DNA from: an uncultured Nitrospirales bacterium
GTDB taxonomy: Bacteria; Hydrogenedentota; Hydrogenedentia; Hydrogenedentales; GCA-2746185
Assembly (NCBI GenBank): GCA_964411925.1
Contig: CAYPNI010000002.1
Coordinates: forward strand, 1,653-65,652
Length of the DNA stretch: 64,000 nucleotides
Direction of reading: 5' to 3'
Every line of letters starts with the position of its first letter. Positions within the stretch are counted from its first letter, which is position 1. The notes beneath the pieces were generated by a model. The model had not been told where the DNA came from, did no database searches, and saw only the letters and a program-made list of their open reading frames with translations. Position numbers and translations under genes: made by a program. This document shows, one piece after another, positions 2,167 through 50,296 of this stretch.

Positions 2167-2628
2167 TTAGGTGTCGTCCTCGGTCGCTTCGTCGTCTTCC
2201 TCAGGTTCTTCAGTCTCGACGATCCCCACATCCTGCGCGGCGGCGTCCATCACCTCGTCGGCGACGAAGATGGGGCACTTGGTCCGCATCGCGACGGCAA
2301 TTCCGTCGCTGGGCCGCGAGTCGATTCGGAGCACTTGTTCAATGTCGCCGGCGGCTGAGATCTGATTGACATTGAGATGGGCGAAGAACGTCTCGTTCTC
2401 AAGTTTATAGATGGTGACGGACTGTAGTTGGCCGCGCAGGCCTGCGAGGATGTTGCACACGAGGTCGTGCGTCATCGGCCGGCCGAGTTTCTCTTCCATC
2501 AGGCCGACCTGGATCGCCTGCGCCTCGGGCAGACCGACCACGATCGGCAGGACCCGATCCTCGTGCCTGAGCAGCACGACCGGGTGCGCGGCCCCATCGC
2601 TGACGCCCAGCACTTCCACTTCTATCAT
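2167..2628 (-). CDS. Bifunctional nuclease (BFN/DUF151) family protein
   Basis: From the internal Met: MIEVEVLGVSDGAAHPVVLLRHEDRVLPIVVGLPEAQAIQ...RPMTHDL...YKLENETFFAHL, with an acidic C-terminal tail. A strong AAGGAGG SD lies immediately upstream of the ATG at 2626-2628. The longer annotated ORF (to 2814) has an implausible N-terminus. Confidence 0.8.
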   Translation of the reverse strand: MIEVEVLGVSDGAAHPVVLLRHEDRVLPIVVGLPEAQAIQVGLMEEKLGRPMTHDLVCNILAGLRGQLQSVTIYKLENETFFAHLNVNQISAAGDIEQVLRIDSRPSDGIAVAMRTKCPIFVADEVMDAAAQDVGIVETEEPEEDDEATEDDT

Positions 2629-2771
2629 CGGCGCCTCCTTTCGGCGTGCCCGTATCATCATACGCAGAACGGCGTGCCGTGCGCGACCCGCCGGGACGCC
2701 GCGCGATCCGCGACGGCTCCCCGACTTATACTGTCGTCGCTTGATTGACTTGAGGCGGCGAGCGCAGAACC

Positions 2772-3404
2772 GTGACTGGACACGAGCGGAGAAACACGCG
2801 GGCGAATTGGTCACCGCTCAAATCGTTCGGCGGTAATTCGGGCCGCGTCCGCCTGGCGGTGTCTCTTGTCGCTTTGGTCCTCTCGTTCGGGACATTGGCG
2901 CTCATTCTCAGCAATCGGCTGGGCTTCTACGTCGTCCCGTCGGCATCGATGGAGCCGACATTGCATCCGAACGATCGCATTGTCGCCGTGGCGTCTACGG
3001 CGCACGAACGCGGCCAGGTCGTGGTCGTACGCGACCCGGTGAATCGGGAGGGATTTCTCGTCAAGCGCATCGTGGGCATGCCGGGTGACCGGGTCGAAGT
3101 GTTCAGCAAACGACTCGTGGTCAATGGGTTGCCGGTGAACGAGCCTTATCTTCGCGAACCGATCGACTATCAACTTCCCCCGACGACGTTGCCCGAGGGC
3201 GAGGTTTTCCTTCTGGGGGACAATCGCAACGAGAGCGAGGACAGCCATGTCTGGAAACACGGCGTCCCCGTGACGGACATCGTCGGCGTCGTACGATACA
3301 TCTATTCTCCCGGGGACCGCCGCGGTGTGCGCGTTTCGTATCCCGAGGTCTTCCGTGGCATCGCGCCCGCCTCGACCGCCGAGGCGAGAACGGCGGATCG
3401 GTGA
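2772..3404 (+). CDS. lepB: Signal peptidase I (S26 family), copy 1
   Basis: N-terminal TM helix, then motifs PSASMEPTL (catalytic Ser box), VKRIVGMPGDRVE and GDNRNESEDSHVW. Confidence 0.85.
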   Translation: MTGHERRNTRANWSPLKSFGGNSGRVRLAVSLVALVLSFGTLALILSNRLGFYVVPSASMEPTLHPNDRIVAVASTAHERGQVVVVRDPVNREGFLVKRIVGMPGDRVEVFSKRLVVNGLPVNEPYLREPIDYQLPPTTLPEGEVFLLGDNRNESEDSHVWKHGVPVTDIVGVVRYIYSPGDRRGVRVSYPEVFRGIAPASTAEARTADR

Positions 3405-4516
3405 ATCGTCTCGATCGTTACTTGCTGCTGGCCGTCCTGAGGCCATCCAGCCTGGCGTTTGCGGTTTCGTCGGTTTTCTTCCTCGCGCAGGAGATCAACG
3501 AACGATCACGATCCATCCTGGCCCAGGTAGTCGAGTTTACGGATCTGGCTCGGCTCACGTTCTACCTGTTCCCGTCGCTGTTGCCGTACGTACTGCCGGT
3601 GACGCTATTTTTCGGGGTATTGGCGGGATACGGGAAACTGGCTGAGCGTGGTGAACTGACGGCGATGTTTGCGGCAGGAATGTCGGCCCGGCGAATGTTT
3701 GCACCGTCGATCGTGTTGGCCGGCACGTCGATCGTCGCCATCGTCGCAATCCAGAATTACCTGCAACCGCTCGGCTTCTCCCGCGCGTACAACCTGATTC
3801 GCGCTGAACTTCCCGCCCGTGCCACGATCGACAGGCTCGAGCCGGGCGTGGTGCACAAGATTGGGAATTCGCGTATTTATTTCCACAGCAGCGACCCTGA
3901 TTTGAATGAGGTTTACGGCGTGGACGTCGTACGATTTGAGCCGGGGCAGGTGGCCACGGTGTTCCACGCCGAATCGGCGCACGTCGTAAAGGAGCCGTTC
4001 GGACAGTCGCTGGTGCTCGGCCGCGGGTTTACCGTCTCGTCCGATCGAATTCGCTCGTCGATGGAGCGCGCAATACTCCGGATTCCTGGCCCGGACCTTA
4101 CTTCCGGGTCGTTGAGAAAAACCCGATCCGGATCGAGCCTCCAAGAATTGTTCGCATTGGATAGGGACTTGACGGCCGCGGAGGAGGAATCGTCCACGCC
4201 GTCGAATCGGCTCGAGTTGCGGAAAACCAGACAGGAGATCTCCGATCGCCTGAGCCTGCCGTTTGCCGCGCTCGGTCTGGCGGCGATCGCGCCGCCGCTG
4301 GTGATCTGGCTCAACCGGAACCGCCGAACCTCCCGGGTGCGCTCGTTTGCGATCGGGCTCGGCATATTGGTCGCGTTCTACGTAGCCCGAACCATGCTTC
4401 AGCCGGAGGATTTGGTAGCGCTTGAGGCGGCGCTGGCGCTCGGTTGGCTGCCGAATGTTGCGGTGCTGGCCGCGGCGCTCCTGATGTATCGGCGGTTAGC
4501 CCGCGCTGCGGGCTAG
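3401..4516 (+). CDS. LPS export ABC permease, LptF/LptG (YjgP/YjgQ) family
   Basis: N-terminal MNRLDRYLL, typical of LptF/LptG. Multi-TM permease with a central periplasmic domain. ATGA overlap with lepB. Confidence 0.8.
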   Translation: MNRLDRYLLLAVLRPSSLAFAVSSVFFLAQEINERSRSILAQVVEFTDLARLTFYLFPSLLPYVLPVTLFFGVLAGYGKLAERGELTAMFAAGMSARRMFAPSIVLAGTSIVAIVAIQNYLQPLGFSRAYNLIRAELPARATIDRLEPGVVHKIGNSRIYFHSSDPDLNEVYGVDVVRFEPGQVATVFHAESAHVVKEPFGQSLVLGRGFTVSSDRIRSSMERAILRIPGPDLTSGSLRKTRSGSSLQELFALDRDLTAAEEESSTPSNRLELRKTRQEISDRLSLPFAALGLAAIAPPLVIWLNRNRRTSRVRSFAIGLGILVAFYVARTMLQPEDLVALEAALALGWLPNVAVLAAALLMYRRLARAAG

Positions 4517-21998: not shown

Positions 21999-22511
21999 CT
22001 ACGCGTCAGCGGGTGGTGGCGAGAAACTCCGGCTCGCGAGTTCGTTGTCCAGCAAAAACAGCGCGCTCGTGTTGTCGCCGATGAGTTTGAGTTTCTGGAC
22101 AATGTCGTCCGCGGAGGCCTCTTCCTCGACCTGTTCGTTGACGAACCATTGCAGCATTGTGTTCGTCGAGTGGTCGCCTTCCTTGAGCACGAGCGTCACA
22201 CACTCTCCGATTTTTTCGGAGATGAAGCATTCGTGCTTGTATGCGTCCTTCATCGCGTCCAAGGGTGACTTCCATTCCTGCTTGGGCTCGGCCGCGGCGG
22301 CGAAGAATGGACGTGCGCCTCGGTTGATGATGTAGGTGTAGATTCGGTGGACGTGCGTCAACTCCTCCTGAGCCTGTATACGCATCCAGTTCGCAAATCC
22401 CTTGAGGTTCACTGAATCGAAATGAGCGGCCATGGCGTAATACACGTAGGCTGACGCGAGTTCGTGGTTAAACTGTTCGTTTAGTTTTTCGAGCACATTT
22501 TTCTTGAGCAT
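21999..22511 (-). CDS. ftn: Non-heme bacterial ferritin
   Basis: MLKKNVLEKLNEQFNHELASAYVYYAMAAHF...QAQEELTHVHRIYTYIINRG...HECFISEKIGECV...WFVNEQVEEEA, the ferroxidase-centre pattern. GGAGGG SD 9 nt upstream. Noticeably lower GC than its neighbours. Confidence 0.85.
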   Translation of the reverse strand: MLKKNVLEKLNEQFNHELASAYVYYAMAAHFDSVNLKGFANWMRIQAQEELTHVHRIYTYIINRGARPFFAAAAEPKQEWKSPLDAMKDAYKHECFISEKIGECVTLVLKEGDHSTNTMLQWFVNEQVEEEASADDIVQKLKLIGDNTSALFLLDNELASRSFSPPPADA

Positions 22512-22543
22512 AGGGTCGATCCCTCCGCGGTTCGTCGGAGCGT

Positions 22544-23053
22544 TCAGGTGGCCGATTTCGCCGCGGCCAGAACGGCGTCGTAATTCGGATGCTCGGCAAT
22601 CTCGGGGACGTACTCGGCGTACTTGATGCGATCGTCCTTGCCGATCACGAAAACCGCGCGGCTGAGGATCCGCAGGCCGGGCACGAGTGTGCCGTAGTTC
22701 TTGCCGAATTCGGTGTGGCGGTGATCGCTCAATACGACGAGCTTTTCCTTGTCGATGCCTTCGGCGCCGCAAAAGCGCGCCTGGGCCATCGGGAGATCGG
22801 CGCTGATGGTGATGAAGGCTGCGTTTGGCAGTTTGACGGCTTCGTCGTTGAAGCGCTTCGTCTGCGCGGCGCACACCGGCGTGTCCAGCGACGGCACCAC
22901 GCTCACGATACGCGTTTTCCCCTTGAAATCGCTCAGTTTTATCTCGTTCACCAGGTCCTTGCTCACGGTCGCGTCAGGCGCCTTATCACCGGTCTTCAGT
23001 TCTGGTCCTTCAAGGGGAAGCGGTTTGCCGCGTAGCGTGGTCATTCGGGACAT
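22544..23053 (-). CDS. tpx: Thiol peroxidase (atypical 2-Cys peroxiredoxin Tpx)
   Basis: SVVPSLDTPVCAAQTKRFNDEA...ISADLPMAQARFCGAEG...RAVFVIGKDD aligns closely with E. coli Tpx, including the peroxidatic and resolving Cys. Confidence 0.9.
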   Translation of the reverse strand: MSRMTTLRGKPLPLEGPELKTGDKAPDATVSKDLVNEIKLSDFKGKTRIVSVVPSLDTPVCAAQTKRFNDEAVKLPNAAFITISADLPMAQARFCGAEGIDKEKLVVLSDHRHTEFGKNYGTLVPGLRILSRAVFVIGKDDRIKYAEYVPEIAEHPNYDAVLAAAKSAT

Positions 23054-31345: not shown

Positions 31346-31492
31346 GCCACACGAACGAGAAAAAAATACCGCAGCACGGGAGGGGGTCTCGTGCTGCGGC
31401 GGACGAGCGGGGGGCCGCTCGTGTGCAATATACCGGGGGCCAAGGGGGTTGACCGCCGGCAACGTAAGAACGGGTTCAACTGCGCCGGGGCG

Positions 31493-31932: not shown

Positions 31933-33267
31933 TCACTTCTGACAAACATTCGGTGCCGGGGCGTCGGGGAGCGGCACGGCGGCCCGAATGAGCGCCTGCT
32001 GGCGCTGAAACACGGGGCCGGCGACCGGATTGCGGACGAAGACGAGGCAGAGGCCGGCAACGGCGTATGCAATGACGAAGACGATGAACGCGGCGTGGTA
32101 ATCGCCGGTGGCGTCGTGGATGAGGCCGGCGATGGGGACGCCGCTGGCCTGGATGGGGAGCATGCAGGGGCTCATGAGCCCCATGACGCGGCCGAACACG
32201 GGGCGGGGGAAGTAATCGCCGACGAGCGAGCCCCAGAGCGGCACGACGCCGCCCATGCCGAAGCCGAAGATGGCGCCGGCGATCAGGAGTTCGTGGTAGG
32301 TGGTGGCGGGGAGGAAGAGGAGCGTGGCGACGGCCTGGAATGCGAGGCAGAGGACGAGGGCGAGGCGCGCGTCCACGTAGTCGGCGACGAACCCGAAGAG
32401 GATTTTGCCGACGACGCCGACGCCGGCCGAGACGGTGAGGATGTAGGACGCTTGAATGCGCGTGATGCCGAGATCGTGTGCGTGGGGGATCATGTGGATG
32501 AGCGTGGCGGCCATGGCGAAGAAGTTGAAGCCGATGCAGAGCGTGATCGCCCAGAACGTCGCGTTGCGCAGCGTGGCGAGGGTGGAGAAGTTCGACGTGA
32601 AGCGGGGCATGGGGCCGTGCGCGCCGAGATCGTCGTTCAGCGATACGCGGGCGCCGTCGGGGTTGAGGCCGATGTCTTCGGGCCGGCTGATCACGAAGAC
32701 CCAGACGATGGGGAGGAGCGCGCCGACGGAGAGCGCGCCGAAGATGAGGAAGGTGTCGCGCCAGCCGTAGTTGACGACGAAGTAGGACGTGACGGGGGCC
32801 ATGACCATGCCGGACATGGAGACGCCGGTCGTGGCGATGCCGAGCGCGGCGCCGCGGCGCCGGACGAACCAGTTCGAGACGAGGGCGGTGCTGGAGAGCT
32901 GGCCGATGCTGACGACGCCGAGGGCGAGAAAGGTGCCGATGAGGACGTAGAACTGCCAGAGGGCGGTGATGTGCGCGGCGAGGAAGAAGCCAACGCCGAG
33001 GCTGACGCAGCCGATCATCATGAGGCGGCGGACGGACCAGGTGTCGATGAAGCGGCCGAGGAACGGTGCGGCGAGGGCCATGGCGGTGTTCATGAGCGTG
33101 AGTCCCATGGCGACGGCGAAACGGGAGGCGCCGAATTCCTTCTGGATGGGCTCGAGGAAGACGCCGTAGGAGTAGAAAATGAAGCCGGTGGCGACGAAGA
33201 GTGTGATGAAGGTGGCGATGACGATCCACCAGCCGTAGAAAAAGAGTTTGAAGTTTCGCAGGAGCAT
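31933..33267 (-). CDS. Major facilitator superfamily transporter
   Basis: 12 predicted TM helices, 444 aa. The longer 637-aa frame listed on the same strand is a GC-driven open frame in a different frame and is discarded. Confidence 0.85.
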   Translation of the reverse strand: MLLRNFKLFFYGWWIVIATFITLFVATGFIFYSYGVFLEPIQKEFGASRFAVAMGLTLMNTAMALAAPFLGRFIDTWSVRRLMMIGCVSLGVGFFLAAHITALWQFYVLIGTFLALGVVSIGQLSSTALVSNWFVRRRGAALGIATTGVSMSGMVMAPVTSYFVVNYGWRDTFLIFGALSVGALLPIVWVFVISRPEDIGLNPDGARVSLNDDLGAHGPMPRFTSNFSTLATLRNATFWAITLCIGFNFFAMAATLIHMIPHAHDLGITRIQASYILTVSAGVGVVGKILFGFVADYVDARLALVLCLAFQAVATLLFLPATTYHELLIAGAIFGFGMGGVVPLWGSLVGDYFPRPVFGRVMGLMSPCMLPIQASGVPIAGLIHDATGDYHAAFIVFVIAYAVAGLCLVFVRNPVAGPVFQRQQALIRAAVPLPDAPAPNVCQK

Positions 33268-33316
33268 TGGTTAACAGGTGAACAATCTGCCGGGAGGTGC
33301 GAATTCCGCATGGTTC

Positions 33317-33425
33317 CTGGGAGCTTGGGGCGTTCGGGGCGGCGGCTGACCCGGCGCGCGTCGTCCCGATGCTTGCGATTATACGCGAGGATGCGTACCC
33401 GTGCACTCGGGCGGGCTAGCAGCCG
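33317..33425. repeat. 109-bp direct repeat, copy 1 (108/109 identical to copy 2); carries a consensus TATAAT on the minus strand at 33378-33383, upstream of the MFS gene
   Basis: ctgggagcttggggcgttcggggcggcggctgacccggcgcgcgtcgtcccgatgcttgcgattatacgcgaggatgcgtacccgtgcactcgggcgggc[t/g]agcagccg is present at both loci. The ORF track independently shows identical MHGYASSRIIASIGTTRAGSAAAPNAPSSQ peptides at both places. Confidence 0.9.
33378..33406 (-). promoter_or_regulatory. Putative promoter inside repeat copy 1 (perfect -10 TATAAT; weak -35), oriented toward the MFS transporter gene
   Basis: The minus strand reads ...gcatcctcgcgTATAATcgcaagcatc.... A TSS would lie about 100 nt upstream of the MFS ATG. 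Confidence 0.3.
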
Positions 33426-33516
33426 CCAGGCCAGCAGCGGCGACGGGGAACCTGGGCGATGATGCCACGGATCAGCAAAATCACGCCGAGGTCGCGCGGC
33501 CCGATGCTTTGCGAAA

Positions 33517-34974
33517 TTACCAGTCTGTGACGCCGATGTCGCGCAGTGCGTCTTGCGCCTCCTTGACTCCCATTCGGGCGGCGGTCACCCAATTCTCGGT
33601 CGCCTTCTTGATGTCCTCTGGGCCCAAGAGCCCTTTGTAGTACAGATTTCCAAGTTGATACCAGGCGATTGGTTCGCCATCGCGAGCGGCGGCGGCGAGG
33701 AGCGTTGCTGCTTCGCTGTAATTTCGCGGGGCGTCGCCTTCGATGTACATCATGGCGAGACTGTACATTCCGGCTGCGTATTCGAGTGCTGCCGACTTGC
33801 CGTACCACATGAGCGCCTTCGCGCTATCTTTATTTACGATGTCGCCCCCATCACGGTAGTGATCTCCGAGACGTTTCATGGCGCGTGGCAATCCACGATC
33901 GATGGCTCGCTCGTAGAGTTCGAGCGCTGCGGGTGCGTTTCGCTCGATACCGAGTCCGTCGGCGTACATGTCGGCAAGATTAGTCATGGCGAGTTCCATG
34001 CCGTCAGCGCCTTCGCCGGCCGACGCGTAGTACCTTGCGGCGCGTTTCGGGTCGGGTTCGACGCCGATGCCATGTTGGTAGGCTGCGCCAACCAGGAACT
34101 GTGCCTCTGTAGATCCCGATTCGGCGACCGTTTTTACGAAACCGAAGACTTCGCTGGCCAGTTTCGCGGCGCCGACGGGATCTTTCGAATAAACACTGAG
34201 TCCGTGAAACATGTTTCGTGCGATCCACATCTTCGCGATTCGATCGCCACGGTCGGCACATCGCTGAAAGAGGTCTCTGGACTGCAATCGATCATTCAAG
34301 TTGCCGGTGTGAGTCTGGAGCCTCACCGCTTCCTTCCGATCGTTCGCCGTCCTCAGGTCGACGAAGGGATCCACTTTGGATTGCAGAGGTAGAGGTGGGG
34401 GCGGCTCCGGTTCCGGAAAGGCGTACCACGTCCACGCCGCTGCGATGGCTGTCGCAATCGCGAGCGTCGCGACGAGCATACTGAGTCGCCGGGGCGGACG
34501 GTGCCCCGTAGGATTGGCTTTGGGCTGCGGGGCGGCGATTGGGCCCGAAATCAAGCGCGCAAGTCTGGCAGCGACCTCCGCGGGCGATTTTTCGCGAAGG
34601 TGTTCGAACTGCGCAGCACCGACACAGTACGCCAGCGCGGGCGGGAGTTCGGCGTCATCCGCGCGCACGGGATAGATTTTCTTGTCTTCTTCGAAGGCGA
34701 GTTGGACTTCGATCTGCACGTTTCTGGACTGGTTGGCATGTTCCGAAACAATGAGAATGAGGCCGCCGGAGGCCGTGATCGCCGGAGGAATGACGGCGGT
34801 ATAGACTTCGCCGGGGTTGATGTCGCGCACGGCACTCCAGCATTTCACGCCAAGCGACTCGAGCGCGTCGCGGATCCGATTCGCAGCGACCGTGTCTTCT
34901 GTCGCGTGACTTATGAACAGATAGCCCGGCCACCTCGACTTCAAAGCTGGTCCGGGTTCGAACGTGCCGCTCAT
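33517..34974 (-). CDS. TIR domain - single TM helix - Sel1-repeat protein (paralog 1)
   Basis: N-terminal YLFISHATED...RDINPGEVY...LILIVSEHANQSRNVQIEVQLA (TIR boxes 1/2 plus a conserved Glu). TM LSMLVATLAIATAIAAAWTWYAF. About 6 C-terminal Sel1-like repeats (AQFLVGAAYQHGIGVEPDPKRAARYY..., MTNLADMYADGLGIERNAPAALELY..., etc.). Lower GC than its flanks. Confidence 0.85.
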   Translation of the reverse strand: MSGTFEPGPALKSRWPGYLFISHATEDTVAANRIRDALESLGVKCWSAVRDINPGEVYTAVIPPAITASGGLILIVSEHANQSRNVQIEVQLAFEEDKKIYPVRADDAELPPALAYCVGAAQFEHLREKSPAEVAARLARLISGPIAAPQPKANPTGHRPPRRLSMLVATLAIATAIAAAWTWYAFPEPEPPPPLPLQSKVDPFVDLRTANDRKEAVRLQTHTGNLNDRLQSRDLFQRCADRGDRIAKMWIARNMFHGLSVYSKDPVGAAKLASEVFGFVKTVAESGSTEAQFLVGAAYQHGIGVEPDPKRAARYYASAGEGADGMELAMTNLADMYADGLGIERNAPAALELYERAIDRGLPRAMKRLGDHYRDGGDIVNKDSAKALMWYGKSAALEYAAGMYSLAMMYIEGDAPRNYSEAATLLAAAARDGEPIAWYQLGNLYYKGLLGPEDIKKATENWVTAARMGVKEAQDALRDIGVTDW

Positions 34975-36254
34975 TTTTCCGGCTCCCCCTCACGAGTCTG
35001 TAGCGCAGCTTTCGCTCGCGTGCTCCCGTTTTGCGCCGCCATCGCCCACAATTCGAGCGCGGCCTGCACATCGAGCGATACACCGGTGCCTGTAATGAGC
35101 ATCTCGCCGAGTTTGAACTGCGCGTCGGCATACTGGTGATCAGCTGCCTTCTTGTACTGTTGTACGGCGCGCACGCTGTCTACGCTCACTCCGCCCCGTC
35201 CCTCGCGGTAGACATCTCCAAGGCGGGTCATGGCTCGCACGTCTCCCCGTTCCTCAGCTTTTTGATACCACCGGATTGCCTCCGCCATGTTTTGTTGTTC
35301 TCCCAGCCCTACCTCGCACATGGTGCCGAGTTTGAACATTGCGATCGCATAGTCGGCATCGGCGGCCCGGCGATACCTATCCGCGGACTCCGTGGTATTC
35401 CGTTCGATTCCGATTCCCAATTCCAAGGCGTGCGCATAAAGGAACTGCGCCTCGACAGAACCAGAGTCCGCCAGAGACTGGACGCACCGCACGACCTTAC
35501 GGGCCTTTCGTATTGCGGCGGGACGATCCAAGGGAAACATGCCGTGCTCGTTATAAAGACTTCGAGCCACCCAAAGCGCCGCAAGCGGATCACCGCCGTT
35601 GTCGGCTTCTTCAAGCAATCGTCTGGAAAGCTCAAGATTGTCCTTGCCTGGATTCTTCTCATAGAGGTCGATGGCTTGCGATCGCGTCTCATCGAATTTT
35701 CTCGCGAGATCGGCATGGCATCGGGGGAGAGACACGTATCCCCCAAGCAAGAGCAGAACGAGAATGACGAATCCTGTAATGACATGTAGCTTGGATAATC
35801 TTCTCGGAGGACGGTCCTTCTTGGCGTCCGCATTCCCGTTGGGCGACCCGCGCGCTTCGCCAGATTTGATGGCGGTTTCCAACTTCGCGACGATTTGACG
35901 AAGCGGACCGTGTCTCGCGTCGATGTACTGATTGATGCTCAGGTAGTATTGAACAGTGTCGGGGGGAAGCGTGTCATCGAGTTGTACCGTCAACACGTTT
36001 TTGCCGTTCTGCACGGCGATTTCAAGTTCACGACGGACGTGCGGCGATTGAAGCGACCACTTCGACATGATTAGGACAAGGCATGTCGATTTTCTGATTC
36101 CCGCGACGATTTCGGAAGGGTACTCGTCTCCGGCTTTGATGTCGCGAGGGGCGATCCAGCAGGGAATATCTCTGACTTCGAGTTGATTGACGATTTGTCC
36201 CGCGAGTTTCTGATCCTCGGTCGCATGGCTGATGAATGCGCGGTGCGCCGGCAT
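34971..36254 (-). CDS. TIR domain - single TM helix - Sel1-repeat protein (paralog 2)
   Basis: AFISHATEDQKLAGQI...RDIKAGDEYPSEI...CLVLIMSKWSLQSPHVRRELEIAVQ is classical TIR box 1, box 2 and the S-W...E motif. TM LHVITGFVILVLLLLGGYV. C-terminal Sel1 repeats. GAGGGAGG SD 6 nt before the ATG. ATGA overlap with paralog 1. Confidence 0.85.
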   Translation of the reverse strand: MPAHRAFISHATEDQKLAGQIVNQLEVRDIPCWIAPRDIKAGDEYPSEIVAGIRKSTCLVLIMSKWSLQSPHVRRELEIAVQNGKNVLTVQLDDTLPPDTVQYYLSINQYIDARHGPLRQIVAKLETAIKSGEARGSPNGNADAKKDRPPRRLSKLHVITGFVILVLLLLGGYVSLPRCHADLARKFDETRSQAIDLYEKNPGKDNLELSRRLLEEADNGGDPLAALWVARSLYNEHGMFPLDRPAAIRKARKVVRCVQSLADSGSVEAQFLYAHALELGIGIERNTTESADRYRRAADADYAIAMFKLGTMCEVGLGEQQNMAEAIRWYQKAEERGDVRAMTRLGDVYREGRGGVSVDSVRAVQQYKKAADHQYADAQFKLGEMLITGTGVSLDVQAALELWAMAAQNGSTRAKAALQTREGEPEK

Positions 36255-36375
36255 CGTCGGCCTCCCTCAGAATAGACAGGCCAGCTATATTGGGATGCAG
36301 CGCTAGTAAAGTCAATTTAAATTCGCTTTGCGCCTGACGTTGCGCCGAGCGACGCGGGGCGATCCGCGAGGGGTG

Positions 36376-36484
36376 CTGGGAGCTTGGGGCGTTCGGGGCG
36401 GCGGCTGACCCGGCGCGCGTCGTCCCGATGCTTGCGATTATACGCGAGGATGCGTACCCGTGCACTCGGGCGGGCGAGCAGCCG
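36376..36484. repeat. 109-bp direct repeat, copy 2; TATAAT on the minus strand at 36437-36442, upstream of the TIR-Sel1 operon
   Basis: See copy 1. It lies between the kefB-like stop (36494) and the TIR paralog 2 start (36254). Confidence 0.9.
36437..36465 (-). promoter_or_regulatory. Putative promoter inside repeat copy 2 driving the TIR-Sel1 pair
   Basis: Same TATAAT-containing sequence as copy 1. It would give a ~170-nt 5' UTR ending in a strong SD. Confidence 0.3.
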
Positions 36485-36493
36485 GATCAGCGG

Positions 36494-38245
36494 TCAATCG
36501 TGATCGGCGTCCGCGGAGAGTCCCTCGAGCAGCGCCACTTGCAGCTTGGCGTGGATGAGGATGAGTTTTTTGCGCAGAAACACGGCGAGCAGGGTGACGA
36601 TGCCGGTAACGAGCAGCAGCAGTTCGATGGGCGGCAGGATGCTGGAGCTCAGCGCGGAGATGAGAAGCGCGAACAGCAATATGGCGGCGAGCGGGATAAT
36701 TTCGGCGAGGGCCATTCGAACGCGGAGATTGGGCGCGGTGGCGCCGGATCCGCGCGACTGCGCGAGGATGATGCTGAGGCCTTTGAGTTTGCGGTAGACG
36801 GCGTAGACGAAGGGGAGCGAGGCCGTGAGCGCGGCGGCCCAGAGGAGCGCGCGCTGGTAGCGTTCGTCGAGCGCGCCGGCGCCGATCAACTCCAAGAGCG
36901 GCGCGGCGAAGAGCGCCATGCCGAGGAAGGCGGCGGCGACAAGGAGGCAATTGACGGCAATCTGGGCAAGTGTGCGTCGCACGACTTTTACCGTGAGCGA
37001 TTCGCGCCCGGAGGGCTGGGTGGACTGGAGCCAGTCGGTGTAGAGCTGGGACTCGCGCCGGATGGACGCGGGGATCACGCGGCCGATGCGGGTGGCGAAC
37101 GGATCGGAGAGGCGAATCAGATAGGGCGTGAAGAGGGTGGTGATGGCGGAGACGGCCACGGCGATGGGATAGAGGAAGTCGCTGGTGACGCCGAAGCTCA
37201 GGCCGAGCGCGGCGATGATGAAGGAGAATTCGCCGATCTGCGCGAGGCCCATGCCGACGCGGAGGGAGGTGCGCGGGCCGTTGCCCGTGACGAATGCGCC
37301 GGCTCCGCAGGCGAGGACCTTGCCGATGACGACGGCGGCGGTGATGACGGCGATGGGCCATGCGTGGCTGACGAGAATGGCGGGGTCGAGCAGCATGCCG
37401 ACGGTGACGAAGAAAATCGCGCTGAACATGTCCCGAATCGGCGCGACGAGGCGCTCGATGCGCGGAAGGTCGCGGGCTTCGGCGATGACGGCGCCGATCA
37501 TGAACGCGCCGAGGGCGACGCTGTAACCGAGTTTGAGCACAACGAGACAGAAGCCGAAGCAGAGGCCGAGGACGGTGACGAGGAGCATTTCATCGCGCTC
37601 GAACCGGGCGACGTAGGCCAGGAGCCGCGGAACGAGGAGCAGGCCGGCGAGCATGGCGACGACCATGAAAACGCCGAGTTTGCCGACGGTGCCGGCGATT
37701 TGAACGGCGTCCATATCGCCGGTGACGGCGAGGCTGGACAGTAGCGCGATGATGGCGATGGCGAGGATGTCTTCGACGATGAGTATGCCGAAGATGAGCT
37801 GGGCGAACCGCTCCTGTTTGAGCCCGAGTTCGTCGAGCGCCTTGATGATGATGGTGGTGGACGAGATGGCGAGCATGGCGCCGAGGAAGATGGAATCCAT
37901 GGACGCCCAACCGAAGAACCGGCCGATTTCGTAGCCGACCCAGATCATCAGAATGATTTCAGCAGTCGCCGCGACGAGCGCGGAGACGCCGACGCGCCGC
38001 AGCTTTCGCAGGCTGAATTCCATGCCGAGCGAGAGCATGAGCAGGATGACGCCCAGTTCAGCGAGCGACTGGATGGTCACTTCGTCGACGACGAGCGGGA
38101 AGGGCGGTGTGTAGGGGCCGATGACAAATCCGGCGAGGATATAACCCAGGACGACGGGCTGGCGGAGGTGATGGAAGATGAGGGTGATGACGCCGGCGAT
38201 CAGCATGATCACGGCGAGATCCTGAATGAAATGAGTGGCGTGCAT
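36494..38245 (-). CDS. Monovalent cation:proton antiporter (CPA2 / Kef-type) without an RCK domain
   Basis: MHATHFIQDLAVIMLIAGVITLIFHHLRQPVVLGYILAGFVIGP is the typical CPA2 N-terminus. About 13 TM helices, with a C-terminal extra membrane domain instead of TrkA-N. GGGAG SD ahead of the ATG at 38245. The ORF-track start at 38308 would add an implausible 21-aa lead overlapping the promoter-like motif. Confidence 0.8.
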   Translation of the reverse strand: MHATHFIQDLAVIMLIAGVITLIFHHLRQPVVLGYILAGFVIGPYTPPFPLVVDEVTIQSLAELGVILLMLSLGMEFSLRKLRRVGVSALVAATAEIILMIWVGYEIGRFFGWASMDSIFLGAMLAISSTTIIIKALDELGLKQERFAQLIFGILIVEDILAIAIIALLSSLAVTGDMDAVQIAGTVGKLGVFMVVAMLAGLLLVPRLLAYVARFERDEMLLVTVLGLCFGFCLVVLKLGYSVALGAFMIGAVIAEARDLPRIERLVAPIRDMFSAIFFVTVGMLLDPAILVSHAWPIAVITAAVVIGKVLACGAGAFVTGNGPRTSLRVGMGLAQIGEFSFIIAALGLSFGVTSDFLYPIAVAVSAITTLFTPYLIRLSDPFATRIGRVIPASIRRESQLYTDWLQSTQPSGRESLTVKVVRRTLAQIAVNCLLVAAAFLGMALFAAPLLELIGAGALDERYQRALLWAAALTASLPFVYAVYRKLKGLSIILAQSRGSGATAPNLRVRMALAEIIPLAAILLFALLISALSSSILPPIELLLLVTGIVTLLAVFLRKKLILIHAKLQVALLEGLSADADHD

Positions 38246-38307
38246 CGATCTCCCGGGGTTGGACGATGGGGGTTCCGGATACTCGCCAGTATACGCAAGG
38301 ATGCGCA

Positions 38308-38339
38308 CCTACTTTCTTTTTGGAAAAAAAGAAAGTAGG
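38308..38339. promoter_or_regulatory. Perfect AT-rich palindrome: 14-bp arms (cctactttcttttt / aaaaagaaagtagg) with a 4-nt spacer, just upstream of a TATACT -10-like box for the kefB-like gene
   Basis: Read directly from the sequence. It lies in the divergent kefB-like / SDR intergenic region. It is adjacent to gcgcatccttgcgTATACT (reverse complement of 38288-38306), which resembles the repeat's gcatcctcgcgTATAAT. Confidence 0.4.
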
Positions 38340-38566: not shown

Positions 38567-39349
38567 ATGAGTGCGTCGATCAGTTTAAAGGGGAAGGTAG
38601 CGATTGTGACGGGCGGGGGGCGGGGGATCGGGAAGGCGATAGTGCAGAAATTCGCGGAAGCGGGGGCCGGGGTGGCGATCGCGAGCCGGAAGATGGAGAA
38701 CCTCGAGGCGACGGCGGAGGAGTTCAAGAAGCTGCCGGGGAAAATCCTGCCGGTGGCGTGTCACGTGGGGCGGCCGGAGCAGTTGGAGGACCTGGTCAAG
38801 CGGACGGAGAAGGAACTGGGGCCGGTGGACATTGTGGTGAACAATTCGGCGACGAATATCGGGCAGGGGCCCGCGCTGGATGTGACGGACGACATGCTGG
38901 ACAAGATGGTGGATGTGAACGTGAAGTCGGCGCTGCGGCTGATCCGGCTGACGGTGCCGAGGATGAAGGAGCGCAAGTCGGGCGGGTCGATCATCAACAT
39001 CGTGTCGATCGCGGGGCTGCGGCCGCAGTACCAGGGGCTCTTGTACAGCTTCACCAAGGCGGGGCTGATCATGATGACGAAGAGCTGGGCGCAGGAGTTC
39101 GGGCAGTTCGGCGTGCGGGTGAACGCGATTGCGCCGGGCCTGATCAAGACGGATTTCAGCGCGTTCTTCCACGAGAACCCGGACCGCGTCAAGGCGATCG
39201 AGCGGACGCAGCCAATCCCGCGAATCGCGGAGACGAGCGAGCTGGGATTCGCCGCGTTGTACCTCGCTTCGGACGAGGCGTCTTTTGTCACGGGCGAGAT
39301 CCTGGTGATCGACGGCGGGGCGATGATCGGGCGCGGCGGGACGATTTGA
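38567..39349 (+). CDS. Short-chain dehydrogenase/reductase (SDR) family oxidoreductase
   Basis: [11 protein letters not shown] (Rossmann), NNSA, S...YSFTKAG catalytic Tyr/Lys. GGAAGGAG SD. Confidence 0.85.
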
Positions 39350-47349: not shown

Positions 47350-48330
47350 TCAGATTCGGACTGGTTGGCGGGAGCGGGCGGAGCGGTAAGCGGCGAGGGT
47401 GACTTCGACGGCGCGTAGACCGTCTTCGCCGGTGGCGGCGGGGGGACGTCTGTCGCGAACAGCATCGACGAAATCGCGGACGAGCGCGAAATTCGCATCA
47501 TCGCCCCAGCCTGCCCACTCGTGGCGGCCGGTGTCGTCGCGGTAAACGTCCACCTTCTGCGCGAAGGCGTCCACACTAAGCGTGCCGCGGGCGCCGTGGA
47601 GTTCGAGCGTAAGGTCACCCCACGTGGGGAACGACGTGGGCCGGTTCCAGCTGGCGACGTGGGCGACCCGGATGCCGGTCTCCATTTCGAGTTGGAGGCT
47701 GCCGATGTCGTCGGTGCGGATGCCGGGCCGAAGTTTATTGCCGAGGGCGCAGTAGACGCGGGTGAATTCGCGGCCGGTGATCCAGCGGAGCGCGTCGGCG
47801 ACGTGGACGGTGTGATCCATGACGGCGCCGCCGCCGCTCAACTTCGGGTCGGCGAACCATCCTCCAGGGAACTGGCCGTTGTTCGTGCAGGCGGCGGCGA
47901 GCAATGGCCCGATTTCGCCTCGCCGGAACCGCTCGCGCGTCTCGACGAGGGGCGTGGCGAATCGGCAGGGGAAGGCGGTGCCGAGGCCGACCTTGGCCCG
48001 GCGGCAGGCGGCGACCATGGCGCGGGCATCGGCGATCGTGGTGGCGAGCGGCTTCTCGCACAGGACCCAGAGTCCGGCCCTGGCGGCCGCTTCGACCATC
48101 GGGCGGTGCTTGACGTTTTCCGAACAGACGATGACCGAGTCGAGATCGTTGGCGAGGAACTTGTCGCGACTGGCGGTGAAGGTCGTGCCGTATAGCTTTG
48201 CAGCGGCGCGGCCGCGGCGCGCGTCGTCGTCCCAGATTCCCGCGAGTTCGGCGCTGTCGATGCGGGTGAGCGCAGCGGCGTATGCGTGCGCGTGCATATG
48301 CGCGAAACTCATAATGCCGACTCGGATCAT
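47350..48330 (-). CDS. Gfo/Idh/MocA-family NAD(P)-dependent oxidoreductase
   Basis: IRVGIMSFAHMHAHAYAAAL...VLCEKPLA...DHTVHVAD layout. Confidence 0.85.
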   Translation of the reverse strand: MIRVGIMSFAHMHAHAYAAALTRIDSAELAGIWDDDARRGRAAAKLYGTTFTASRDKFLANDLDSVIVCSENVKHRPMVEAAARAGLWVLCEKPLATTIADARAMVAACRRAKVGLGTAFPCRFATPLVETRERFRRGEIGPLLAAACTNNGQFPGGWFADPKLSGGGAVMDHTVHVADALRWITGREFTRVYCALGNKLRPGIRTDDIGSLQLEMETGIRVAHVASWNRPTSFPTWGDLTLELHGARGTLSVDAFAQKVDVYRDDTGRHEWAGWGDDANFALVRDFVDAVRDRRPPAATGEDGLRAVEVTLAAYRSARSRQPVRI

Positions 48331-49376
48331 GTGGGCTCCTTCCGGTGGAGTTCGTCACGCGCCGGATCGATTCCGGCGTCCGCCGCGCGCTTGAACCAGC
48401 GGCGCGCCGTGGCGGCATTGCGCCGGAGTCCCAGGCCTTCACGGTAGCAGTACCCCAGGCGGAACTGTGCCCAGGGATCGTCCTTGTCGGCGGCGTCCCG
48501 AAAGTACTGCACGGCGCGATCGAGGTCGTGTGGAAGTCCGCGGCCGAGCAAATGGCGCTCACCGAGTTCGCGCATGGCACCGGGGTGACCTAGGGCGGCG
48601 GCCTTCTGCAGCCAGACGATGGCGTCGTCGCGGTCGCCGCGTTTTCGGGATTCGGCCAGGGCGAGGCCGAGCGAGTATTGCGCGGACAGATAGCCCTGGG
48701 CGGCTGAACGGCGCAACCACGAGACCGCGCGGGCGCGACTGCGCCGGACACCGCGGCCGGCGAGGTATATCGCGCCGACGACGAACTGGGCGTGTCGGCT
48801 GCCCGTCTCGGCGGCCTTGCGATACCAGTGGAGCGCACGTGAATCGCTCTGCTTGACGCCTCGCCCTTCACTGTAGAGCCGGCCCATTCGCATCTGCGCG
48901 CGGAGATCGCCGTCCATCGCCGCGCGGCGATACCACTGGGCGGCGCGGCGATAATTCCTGGTGACGCCCGCGCCGTTCTCGTATGCGCGGGCGAGATGAA
49001 ACCGGGCGACTTCGTCGCCGTCGTTCGCGGCCATGCGGTACCAGCGGAGCGCGCGCTTCGCGGACTGACGCACGCCATGGCCGACGGCGTAGCGATAGCC
49101 GAGGGCGAGTTGGGCGTAGTTGTCGCCCTGGAGGGCGGCCTGTTCGAGCCAGCGCGTGGCCGAGCGCGACGAGCCGGAGCCGTTGTCGCTGCGGTAATAC
49201 ATGGACGCAAGGGCGTACTGGGCGGGGGCGTATCCCGCGCGGGCGGAACGCCGCAACCAACGCATGGCTTCCTTGCGATCGCGGCGGCCACCGGTGAGAT
49301 AGGCAGCGGCGAGAACGCATTGGGCTTCGGCGTCGCCGGATTCGGCCATCTCGAGGAGTTCGGGGTCCATGTTCAA
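48327..49376 (-). CDS. Sel1-repeat (SLR/TPR-like) protein, no signal peptide
   Basis: About 9 tandem Sel1 units (AQ..LA..Y..G.GV..D...A..W...AA..G). ATGA overlaps with both flanking oxidoreductase genes. Confidence 0.8.
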   Translation of the reverse strand: MNMDPELLEMAESGDAEAQCVLAAAYLTGGRRDRKEAMRWLRRSARAGYAPAQYALASMYYRSDNGSGSSRSATRWLEQAALQGDNYAQLALGYRYAVGHGVRQSAKRALRWYRMAANDGDEVARFHLARAYENGAGVTRNYRRAAQWYRRAAMDGDLRAQMRMGRLYSEGRGVKQSDSRALHWYRKAAETGSRHAQFVVGAIYLAGRGVRRSRARAVSWLRRSAAQGYLSAQYSLGLALAESRKRGDRDDAIVWLQKAAALGHPGAMRELGERHLLGRGLPHDLDRAVQYFRDAADKDDPWAQFRLGYCYREGLGLRRNAATARRWFKRAADAGIDPARDELHRKEPT

Positions 49377-50296
49377 CGGCCGATCTTGACCGCGCGCGCG
49401 GTGCCAGCGGACTCGACCGCGGCCTCGACGACGCGGAGCACGTGTTCTTCATGCCTGCGCTGCCTGGCGGACATGGGGCCGGCGTCGATGGCGTCGAAAA
49501 ACTGACGCAATCGACGGACGATGACTGGCGGGTCGAGCGGGCTGGACGCGACCGCGGCGCGGCTGGACGTTGCGGTATGCGGCGCGACAGAGAGGATCGC
49601 GTCAGACGTGGTGAATTGGACCATGCCGGAGGCGCCGCAGAGTTCGATCGCGGCGCGGTCGCTGGCGTCGGGCGCAACCGAGGCGACGCACTGCACGAGC
49701 GGGCCGCTGCCCAGGGTCAGCGTGAGCAAGGCGGCGTCCACCGACTTCTTGCGGACGATCTGCGCGAACACCGAGGTGACGCGGCCGAAGGTCTCCGCAA
49801 TCCAGTCGAGGTCGCCCGCGAGCGAATCGAGCGCGTCGCCTCGCGCGGCGTGTCGATGAACACGGACGAAGCCGACCTCGCCGATCGCGCCGGCGGTGAC
49901 CTGGGCGGACGCGGCTGCGAATTGCGGGCAGGACCGGGCGGGATCTGCGGGGGCGAGGACGGCGCCGGCCTGCGCGGCGGCGTCGAGCAGGCGGCGGGCA
50001 TGCTTCGGATGATGCGCGAGGGGAGCGGCCCAGTACACGGGCAGACCGGCACCCAGCGCGTGTGTGGCGGGCTCGATGTCGCGCGGGGATGGCGACGTGA
50101 CGAGGATCGCGTCGGCTGCGGCGATGGCGTGGACGGGCCGGGTGGTGAACGGGACGCCGAACTTCGCGGCGGTGCGCTTTGCGGCAGGGGATGACGCGTC
50201 TGCGCAGGCGGCGATGGTGTGGCCGAGTGAGCGTGCGGCGGCGGCGAGTTCATCCCCGCGAGCGCCGCAGCCGATGAGGGCGAGATTCATGCGCAA
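49373..50296 (-). CDS. Gfo/Idh/MocA-like oxidoreductase (second copy in the operon)
   Basis: N-terminal LALIGCGARG Rossmann motif, Ala-rich, 307 aa. Confidence 0.65.
   Translation of the reverse strand: MRMNLALIGCGARGDELAAAARSLGHTIAACADASSPAAKRTAAKFGVPFTTRPVHAIAAADAILVTSPSPRDIEPATHALGAGLPVYWAAPLAHHPKHARRLLDAAAQAGAVLAPADPARSCPQFAAASAQVTAGAIGEVGFVRVHRHAARGDALDSLAGDLDWIAETFGRVTSVFAQIVRKKSVDAALLTLTLGSGPLVQCVASVAPDASDRAAIELCGASGMVQFTTSDAILSVAPHTATSSRAAVASSPLDPPVIVRRLRQFFDAIDAGPMSARQRRHEEHVLRVVEAAVESAGTARAVKIGR

Follow-up and report, generated by a model that had tools for sequence, protein, structure and literature searches.

Two foreign-looking TIR–Sel1 genes at a duplicated transporter promoter: a candidate envelope-facing sensor pair in an uncultured Nitrospirales bacterium

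How did two genes of foreign appearance, each apparently joining a TIR domain to Sel1 repeats through a single membrane-spanning helix, come to lie between two copies of what looks like the control region of a resident transporter gene, and what might they be doing there? The question is raised by a 64,000-nt stretch of DNA (the window) from an uncultured Nitrospirales bacterium, placed in the Hydrogenedentota by its GTDB lineage (assembly GCA_964411925.1, contig CAYPNI010000002.1). We argue that the two genes, here called TIRB and TIRA, were inserted recently, as a ready-made operon, into the promoter region of the gene for an MFS transporter, and that their products may form a self-contained pair of envelope-facing TIR NADase sensors. 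We put the probability of this reading, taken whole and with its insertion history included, at about one half, with more confidence in the history than in the function.

A first-pass annotation of the window had drawn attention to near-perfect direct repeats enclosing two overlapping paralogous genes, and both parts of that description stand. The repeats, at 33317-33425 and 36376-36484, are 109 nt each and differ at one position only (T/G at 33417/36476); their initial 100 nt are identical, and overall they are 99% identical. The window holds these two copies alone, and none was found in 100 dinucleotide-preserving shuffles. The four genes of the region are all on the minus strand, the order of transcription being antiporter, TIRB, TIRA, MFS transporter. 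The elements of the islet and its borders are these:

33317-33425, minus strand: downstream repeat copy, with the native MFS operator/-10 and the initial ~60 nt of the MFS leader
33378-33395, minus strand: operator/-10 in the downstream repeat copy, the native MFS element
33426-33516, minus strand: cargo-specific 3' segment, with a terminator-like hairpin and T-rich tail inside it
33517-34974, minus strand: TIRA, 485 amino acids; TIR at ~19-145, transmembrane helix at ~164-182, a Pro-rich stretch, then Sel1 repeats
34971-36254, minus strand: TIRB, 427 amino acids; TIR at residues 1-134, transmembrane helix at ~155-176, Sel1 solenoid at ~245-422
36255-36375, minus strand: 5' untranslated segment peculiar to the cargo, reaching from the repeat to the TIRB start, AT-richer and with no counterpart in relatives
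36376-36484, minus strand: upstream repeat copy, beginning 10 nt past the antiporter stop codon and ending 121 nt ahead of the TIRB start
36437-36454, minus strand: operator/-10 in the upstream repeat copy, sequence CGCATCCTCGCGTATAAT

The start codon of TIRA overlaps the stop codon of TIRB (ATGA), and a Shine–Dalgarno-like GGGAGG lies upstream of the TIRB start; the overlap and the Shine–Dalgarno sequences argue that the two genes form one operon. The hairpin with its T-rich tail is at 33482-33498, 19 nt past the TIRA stop. Each protein has one hydrophobic helix, and both pass the profile check that had been suggested for them, scoring above the gathering cutoff of 28 bits for Pfam TIR_2 (PF13676; TIRB 79.2 bits, E 4.6e-22; TIRA 63.7 bits, E 2.9e-17) as well as above that of 30.7 for Sel1 (90.6 bits, E 5e-26, and 98.8 bits, E 1e-28, respectively).

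The islet had also been judged by eye to lie some ten GC points below its neighbours. It is indeed the minimum among all 2.95-kb segments of the window (0.16% of them are equally low), but the drop is smaller, about 6 points (5-7): 58.8% against a window mean of 63.7% (standard deviation 2.0). Third-position GC (GC3) is 0.675 in TIRA and 0.631 in TIRB, versus 0.92 in the MFS gene, 0.86 in the antiporter gene and 0.90 in the SDR gene beyond it; in both GC and GC3 the two TIR genes rank near the bottom of the window. Tetranucleotide usage is less telling: the islet deviates by about +2 standard deviations, but so does the region at 47-49.5 kb, and 47350-50296 is the most deviant region of the window by this measure.

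What, then, is the repeat? Relatives were recovered through a search for orthologues of the MFS protein, and their contigs were compared around the SDR–MFS locus, for which the following elements of the window are needed:

31933-33267, minus strand: MFS transporter gene (MFS_1), native, with orthologues 69-84% identical in related genomes
33268-33290, minus strand: ATT(R)GTTYACCTRTTAACCA, abutting the MFS ATG and found at the equivalent position in relatives L081-L094
36494-38245, minus strand: CPA2-type antiporter gene (Na_H_Exchanger), with its likely ATG at 38245; the longest open reading frame (ORF) starts at 38308
38288-38305, minus strand: third, diverged operator/-10 copy, CGCATCCTTGCGTATACT, ~45 nt upstream of the antiporter ATG
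38310-38337, minus strand: palindrome TACTTTCTTTTT-N4-AAAAAGAAAGTA, 12+12 nt, in the divergent SDR/MFS control region
38567-39349, plus strand: SDR gene, which in relatives lies next to the MFS gene in divergent orientation

In L082/L083, L084/L085 and L094 (MFS proteins 74%, 73% and 69% identical), SDR stands beside MFS and is transcribed away from it across a spacer of 240-420 bp, and the order SDR, MFS, ORF of ~145 amino acids, PQQ dehydrogenase agrees with the window on both sides. An uninterrupted spacer of 312 nt, up to SDR-proximal sequence, is present in L087 (83%), and 272 nt are visible upstream of the MFS gene in L092 (72%). In L081 (80%), the sole gene between SDR and MFS is a small one of the glyoxalase family (L081:1906-2232), which supports the idea that the site is a hotspot for gene gain. 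Neither the TIR genes nor the antiporter gene is at the SDR–MFS locus in any relative recovered (about five, of different species). The contig of the closest relative by MFS protein, L086 (84%), stops inside sequence homologous to the repeat (L086:1-92) and is uninformative here; the break could be due to low coverage or to a repeat at that point.

The spacers of the relatives share a conserved order: palindrome, dyad element with a -10-like hexamer, leader of ~110 nt, MFS ATG. The palindrome is kept in L081, L084 and L087 in the spacer alignment, and is a candidate regulator-binding site. The end of the leader, ATT(R)GTTYACCTRTTAACCA directly before the MFS ATG, is almost invariant even though the MFS proteins are only 69-84% identical, and may be a translational control element; the segment has no obvious Shine–Dalgarno sequence. 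Between these lies an operator/-10-like element, CGCAT-N4-GCGTATAMT, with a conserved TATAAT/TATACT hexamer. Every relative has a single copy of it at this locus, ahead of the MFS gene; the window has three, all within the TIR/antiporter/MFS region. We considered whether this element might be the general promoter consensus of the organism, but it is confined to the MFS locus in window and relatives alike, which rules this out.

Set against this background, the repeat consists of ~24 nt that directly follow the antiporter stop codon and are without counterpart in the relatives, then the MFS operator/-10, then ~60 nt of leader. Its downstream copy runs unbroken into the ancestral leader and so to the MFS ATG. 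Because insertion-free relatives have kept the element and the leader, the repeat is a duplicate of the host's own MFS operator, -10 and leader, rather than a member of a dispersed family or the end of a mobile element. This suits one of the two mechanisms floated at the outset, a duplicated target. Nor is there a sign of the repeat at many unrelated loci, as the window has two copies of it and a 28-mer from it had no matches in JGI metagenome contigs. Little else marks the sequence: a sigma-70 consensus scan called no promoter, Rfam at both thresholds gave nothing in or near the repeat, its RNA folding was not significant (z -0.9), and the leader alignment of the relatives contained no covarying structure other than the operator dyad.

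The antiporter gene seems to have come to the same site by an earlier event. It is at the SDR–MFS locus of no relative; its homologues in genome contigs are 38-61% identical (the best in Pseudomonas), and none of them shares the synteny. It is flanked by an imperfect operator duplication of ~19 nt (GTGCGCATCCTTGCGTATA vs GTACGCATCCTCGCGTATA), and the third operator copy, upstream of it, remains joined to the ancestral palindrome. The imperfection of this short duplication, the native-like GC3 and the distance of the best homologues (only ~60% identical) suggest that the antiporter is probably the older insertion, and with its absence from the relatives we are led to two nested insertions at one locus. 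The first-pass annotation, which had the MFS transporter right, called the antiporter Kef-type; this is loose, in that the NCBIfam scores are below cutoff for KefB (128 bits vs 804), KefC (128 vs 752), CPA2 TIGR00932 (167 vs 238) and also YbaL, and no KTN/TrkA_N domain was detected, so that CPA2-like is the better description.

The insertion of the TIR genes would be later and recent, because the 99%-identical repeat includes sequence that adjoins the antiporter stop codon, and because the genes have kept a foreign codon usage. TIRA and TIRB, on the other hand, are only 32% identical over their full length. The duplication that gave rise to them must therefore long predate an insertion whose repeats are still 99% identical, and by the same reasoning they are likely to have arrived as a ready-made operon. 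We propose that a pre-formed TIRB–TIRA operon was gained horizontally and entered the native MFS control region immediately downstream of the earlier-inserted antiporter, and that 109 bp of host sequence were duplicated on its entry, perhaps by fill-in at a staggered break that captured foreign DNA or by a single crossover with a circular intermediate carrying the 109 bp. In consequence of the duplication, one and the same promoter/operator now stands, in separate copies, before the newcomer operon and before the MFS gene. As a terminator-like hairpin follows TIRA, expression of the MFS gene probably depends on the downstream copy, and this would account for the survival at this site of promoter-duplicating insertions only. 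Direct repeats of 109 bp are long enough for RecA-dependent loss of what lies between them, and would make the islet deletable by homologous recombination.

What kind of proteins do these genes determine? An AlphaFold2 model of TIRB, for which the input was a 51-sequence family alignment, has a TIR domain at residues 1-134 (predicted local distance difference test, pLDDT, >92), a single helix at 155-173 that joins it to the Sel1 part, and a Sel1 solenoid with pLDDT mostly 84-97 (71-97 across all blocks). Foldseek matched the TIR part to AbTir, MAL, SPARTA and RPS4, with target-normalised TM-scores of 0.7-0.8 for AbTir and MAL; the NADase AbTir is among the closest solved TIR folds (target-normalised TM-score 0.82). 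For the Sel1 part, the best structural matches were Sel1 proteins (from Oxalobacter, LceB, LpnE, HcpC and the PA5086/5087 immunity proteins), and sequence matches in the PDB had E-values as low as 1e-47. The window contains another Sel1 protein, of 349 amino acids and seven repeats, whose gene (48327-49376), within the region of strongest tetranucleotide deviation, is flanked on both sides by GFO/IDH/MocA oxidoreductase genes, the stop and start codons overlapping at the joins; this native protein was considered as a donor of the Sel1 domains and ruled out, the identity of ~33-35% being at the generic Sel1 level.

Bacterial TIR domains are usually NADases rather than adaptor scaffolds. Glu76 of TIRB (codon 36027-36029) aligns with Glu89 of TIRA (codon 34708-34710), and both are in the S-x(5)-S-x(5)-E context of TIR NADases. 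Glu76 is invariant in the 51-sequence alignment and at least 90% conserved in a second set of 50 sequences, and Glu89 is matched by a Glu in an alignment with the oyster TIR-STING protein; the two residues are thus putative catalytic glutamates.

The hydrophobic helix of each protein lies ~25-30 residues past the TIR domain (TIRB 158-176, TIRA 164-182). Inspection of the two N-termini showed no evident signal peptide (no predictor was run), an RPPRRLS motif stands ahead of the helix, and Lys and Arg are more numerous on its N-terminal than on its C-terminal side (6 vs 4 in TIRB, 4 vs 0 in TIRA). From these features we predict an N-in/C-out topology, with a cytoplasmic TIR domain and a periplasmic Sel1 domain. 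The Sel1 part also bears a weak resemblance to the periplasmic Sel1 proteins MotX, AlgK, MerG and ExoR; of these, ExoR, MotX and AlgK function in envelope signalling or assembly.

How unusual is the pair? In a cluster look-up, TIRB, TIRA and the MFS protein were all singletons, the two TIR proteins among ~15 billion sequences. When the N-terminal halves were used for an exhaustive profile search, 55,700 cluster representatives were retrieved at E<=1e-3, and not one was nearer than the generic TIR-domain level. Many of these matches have an N-terminal TIR domain followed by a transmembrane helix at about residue 150-175. To sample this family, 80 JGI metagenome loci were fetched by the motif xCW[IVL]APRD. 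Like the pair in the window, these CWIAPRD TIR_2 proteins have an N-terminal TIR domain, a linker of 25-90 amino acids (~25 in TIRB) and a single transmembrane helix (no more than 90 amino acids after the TIR domain in 51 of 79 sampled TIR ORFs), the same invariant residues (F7, S9, D14, C32, W33, R37, D38, E76) and a habit of occurring as adjacent paralogues, two or three family TIR ORFs standing side by side in nine of the 80 loci. Two metagenome contigs have three consecutive ORFs of the family on the same strand (L131:5277-10185 and L134:156-4433, the third in L134 ending with the contig).

The pair differs from the sampled family in its outer domain, which is Sel1, and in the degenerate motif of TIRA (CWSAVRD). 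Outer domains in the sample include TPR (11 of 50), FGE-sulfatase (5) and Kelch propellers (3), and Sel1 as an outer domain is found in none of the 80 loci. In L146, a Sel1-like coding region (1823-2164) directly precedes a TIR gene of the family (2326-3708), which suggests that TIR and Sel1 can also occupy separate neighbouring genes. Among the proteins retrieved, the exact order TIR, transmembrane helix, Sel1 recurs in P0016 only, the product of a solitary gene amid housekeeping genes in a metagenome-assembled genome of the Rhodocyclaceae. P0020, P0196 and P0205 combine TIR and Sel1 without a transmembrane helix, and similar Sel1 modules are fused to caspase, Ser/Thr kinase and PARP domains, a hydrophobic, transmembrane-like segment being visible in the single kinase fusion inspected (P0006). 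With the TIR–transmembrane layout so widespread and a Sel1 outer domain so seldom met, the pair looks like a rare outer-domain variant of a large, uncharacterised, receptor-like TIR family.

Comparison with known immune systems leads to a similar view. No description of a protein with TIR domain, transmembrane helix and Sel1 repeats was found in the literature searched, and no NCBIfam model gave a TIR-protein match near any cutoff. The initial opinion that the architecture is undescribed therefore holds for the exact arrangement, but TIR, transmembrane helix and repeat-type outer domain form a layout that is common in soil and sediment metagenomes, and TIR+TPR anti-phage systems have been demonstrated (PMC11350192), so it is less exotic than had been suggested. 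TIRB, although not TIRA, exceeds the Pfam cutoff for ThsB_TIR of the Thoeris system (27.9 vs 21.2 bits), and the PADLOC matches to ThsB are weak (E 5e-4) and partial. No ThsA (SIR2/Macro-SLOG) or other effector gene adjoins the pair, and we know of no ThsB or ThsA with Sel1 repeats. A SAVED-TIR model of CBASS/Pycsar type matches the TIR portion only (residues 17-94) and there is no cyclase at the locus; the Aga_TIR match to SPARTA (short pAgo TIR-APAZ) covers TIR residues 6-86 only, with no Argonaute nearby. Wanting ThsA, cyclase and Argonaute partners, the pair belongs to none of Thoeris, CBASS/Pycsar and SPARTA.

A closer parallel is with the single- and two-protein TIR systems, among them TIR-II (TIR+TPR) and TIR+TM (TM, transmembrane), that defend Escherichia coli by means of the TIR active site (PMC11350192). 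Shared with these are the active-site Glu, a TPR-class repeat as the presumed sensor and independence from a cyclase or ThsA, and some of them also need two proteins; defence is the role of all E. coli TIR systems examined to date (PMC11350192). The likeness to TIR-II drawn here is one of architecture, and the pair differs in having a transmembrane helix between TIR and repeats and in the predicted periplasmic position of the latter, as well as in having Sel1 rather than canonical TPR repeats and two genes that are paralogues of each other. Sel1 repeats preceded by a transmembrane segment have been listed among the peptidoglycan-associating domains of conflict systems (Kaur et al., PMC7159879).

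The scheme that we think most likely, inferred throughout, is the following. The outer Sel1 domains would bind a ligand derived from the envelope or from an invader; binding would cluster TIRA and TIRB, possibly as a hetero-oligomer, and so draw their TIR domains into an assembly; in this state the domains would cleave NAD+, causing its depletion or yielding a signal derived from ADP-ribose; and growth arrest or abortive infection would follow, making the pair a self-contained conflict or defence module. A bolder version of the same idea, possible but to our minds doubtful, is that the pair is a bacterial counterpart of a Toll-like receptor (TLR) heterodimer, that the TIR–transmembrane family as a whole comprises unrecognised immune receptors for envelope surveillance, and that the site is an insertion hotspot where newcomers acquire copies of a stress-responsive promoter. 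The resemblance lies in a solenoid outside, a single transmembrane helix and a TIR domain in the cytoplasm, with paired paralogues that recall TLR heterodimers, and is an analogy of architecture rather than demonstrated orthology: the outer domain is alpha-helical Sel1, not leucine-rich repeats, and the orientation is N-in, with the TIR domain at the N-terminus. It has its attraction in that the hallmarks of TLRs (membrane anchoring, an extracellular repeat domain and heterodimers) are seemingly absent from bacterial TIR systems (PMC11350192). If it is true, periplasmic Sel1 solenoids would detect phage adsorption, peptidoglycan damage or an incoming toxin that acts in the periplasm, and the signal would cross the membrane through clustering of the cytoplasmic TIR NADase domains. 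In all bacterial TIR immune proteins characterised so far, to our knowledge, the trigger is sensed in the cytoplasm.

A number of observations weigh against the account given here. On the functional side, NADase activity is deduced from a conserved Glu, the topology is a prediction rather than a measurement, the hydrophobicity of the TIRA helix is no more than moderate (Kyte–Doolittle value 1.86), and TIRA carries CWSAVRD where the family consensus is CWIAPRD. PADLOC, whose use had been recommended at the start, returned partial TIR-domain matches only (SAVED-TIR, Aga-TIR, ThsB and PDC-S66) and matched no defence system. No experiment and no conserved gene partner ties the TIR–transmembrane family to phage defence: its neighbours (119 ORFs, considered with no background control) are heterogeneous, including two SLATT, three extra TIR and one AbiEii, and a guilt-by-association approach through these neighbours yielded no consistent partner gene. 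With conflict genes merely scattered among such heterogeneous neighbourhoods, an anti-phage function for the pair is something that we infer. On the historical side, the contig is probably metagenome-assembled and its junctions are known from the assembly alone; the relatives compared are different species, at 69-83% amino-acid identity; loss of the TIR genes in several lineages would be an alternative to gain, albeit an unlikely one; and the true empty site that the first-pass annotation had predicted, with antiporter and MFS genes separated by a single repeat copy, is found in no relative, these being without the antiporter too.

Might the pair be a device for envelope signalling or scaffolding, in which the TIR domain serves for interaction, or as a regulated metabolic NADase, and has nothing to do with immunity? 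It would then be co-regulated with the MFS and antiporter genes through the triplicated operator, in response to a stress such as an electrophile or an ion. The presence of the same operator/-10 on three consecutive transcription units fits this well, as does the detoxification character of several genes at the locus and at the L081 site (SDR, glyoxalase, aldo-keto reductase, a MerR regulator and the CPA2 antiporter); the service of ExoR, MotX and AlgK in the envelope and the mostly housekeeping nature of the family neighbourhoods point the same way. Opposed to it are the family-wide conservation of Glu at the catalytic position, the uniformly defensive record of the E. coli TIR systems tested so far (PMC11350192), and a set of features (foreign composition, patchy distribution, variable outer domains, tandem paralogues) that are typical of conflict systems. 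We think this explanation possible, yet a good deal less attractive than a sensor pair.

Slightly less probable still, in our judgement, is that the islet is a mobile cassette, the repeats being attL and attR and a circle of 3.06 kb integrating and excising at the MFS promoter with a recombinase provided in trans, or with RecA. Near-perfect 109-bp direct repeats around compositionally foreign cargo would be expected of such an element; the lone mismatch lies near one end, as it would after a crossover inside donor and recipient copies that differed; the site has received different insertions in different organisms (the glyoxalase gene in L081, the antiporter here); and a dyad (CGCA-N4-TGCG / TACGC-N6-GCGTA) sits inside every duplicated segment. 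But there is no integrase, transposase or tRNA within +-15 kb. Pfam found neither integrase nor transposase in the main ORFs scanned over 18-50 kb, which are syntenic housekeeping genes, and the locus has no tRNA and no att-like structure, so that a site-specific integrative island would be represented by its target-derived direct repeats, with no recombinase beside them. The repeat itself is conserved in insertion-free relatives, where with its TATAAT/TATACT it resembles a promoter/operator. Neither the repeat nor the cargo was found elsewhere in the metagenomes, plasmids, phages and viral contigs searched (plasmids, GenBank phages and IMG/VR gave partial Sel1 or TIR matches only), and the proteins are the singletons already mentioned. 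The islet resembles other direct-repeat islets (tRNA-targeting islands, integron cassettes) in being short foreign cargo bracketed by repeats of host sequence, and is unlike them in that the repeat is the promoter and leader of a protein-coding gene. Unlike an integron gene cassette, it has no integrase at the locus and nothing of attC type (no Rfam match, and weak inverted matches only, 70-80% complementary and widely spaced, with none at the cargo ends). The suspicion of a horizontally acquired cassette is thus upheld as to deviant composition and absence from the relatives' locus, whereas in the sense of a mobile element it is unproven for want of any mobility gene, tRNA or att-like structure.

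If the TIR genes were instead ancestral and had been lost from the sampled relatives, with the repeat a local duplication unrelated to gene transfer, the small number of relatives (about five, at 69-83% MFS identity) and the evident variability of the SDR–MFS spacer would be accommodated. Several independent and precise losses, each restoring an intact single-operator spacer, would however be needed, the GC3 of the TIR genes is 20-29 points under that of the flanking genes, and no homologue nearer than the generic TIR-domain level emerged from the exhaustive search; we therefore hold this to be very unlikely. Least credible of all is an assembly artefact, a foreign fragment stitched in at a shared repeat, for although contigs can be misjoined at repeats whose length is near that of a k-mer, and this one, of 68 kb, carries singleton proteins and is probably metagenome-assembled, an exact k-mer overlap would not leave a one-base difference between the copies or partial similarity on their flanks, a stitched-in fragment would have to carry the host-specific 109 nt on both ends, and gene orientation, terminator and promoter logic form a functionally coherent arrangement.

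Two minor observations concern other parts of the window. Between the PQQ dehydrogenase gene and the small ORF downstream of the MFS gene there is a weak tfoR-like Rfam match (31360-31467, minus strand; 25 bits vs a gathering score of 70, E 0.008), probably due to chance, and a ferritin-like gene at 21999-22874 has an N-terminal extension of ~125 residues and a GC3 (0.61) that is unusually low for the window.

If our reading of its history is correct, the locus clearly illustrates how genes can be gained in nested fashion at a single promoter, with the promoter/operator duplicated each time, so that the resident transporter retains its control region and the newcomers sit behind copies. The TIRB–TIRA pair is small (2.7 kb), self-contained and easily cloned, and its topology, NADase activity and phage or envelope-stress phenotypes are directly testable. 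Together with the large family to which it seems to belong, it offers concrete candidates for TIR signalling across a bacterial membrane.

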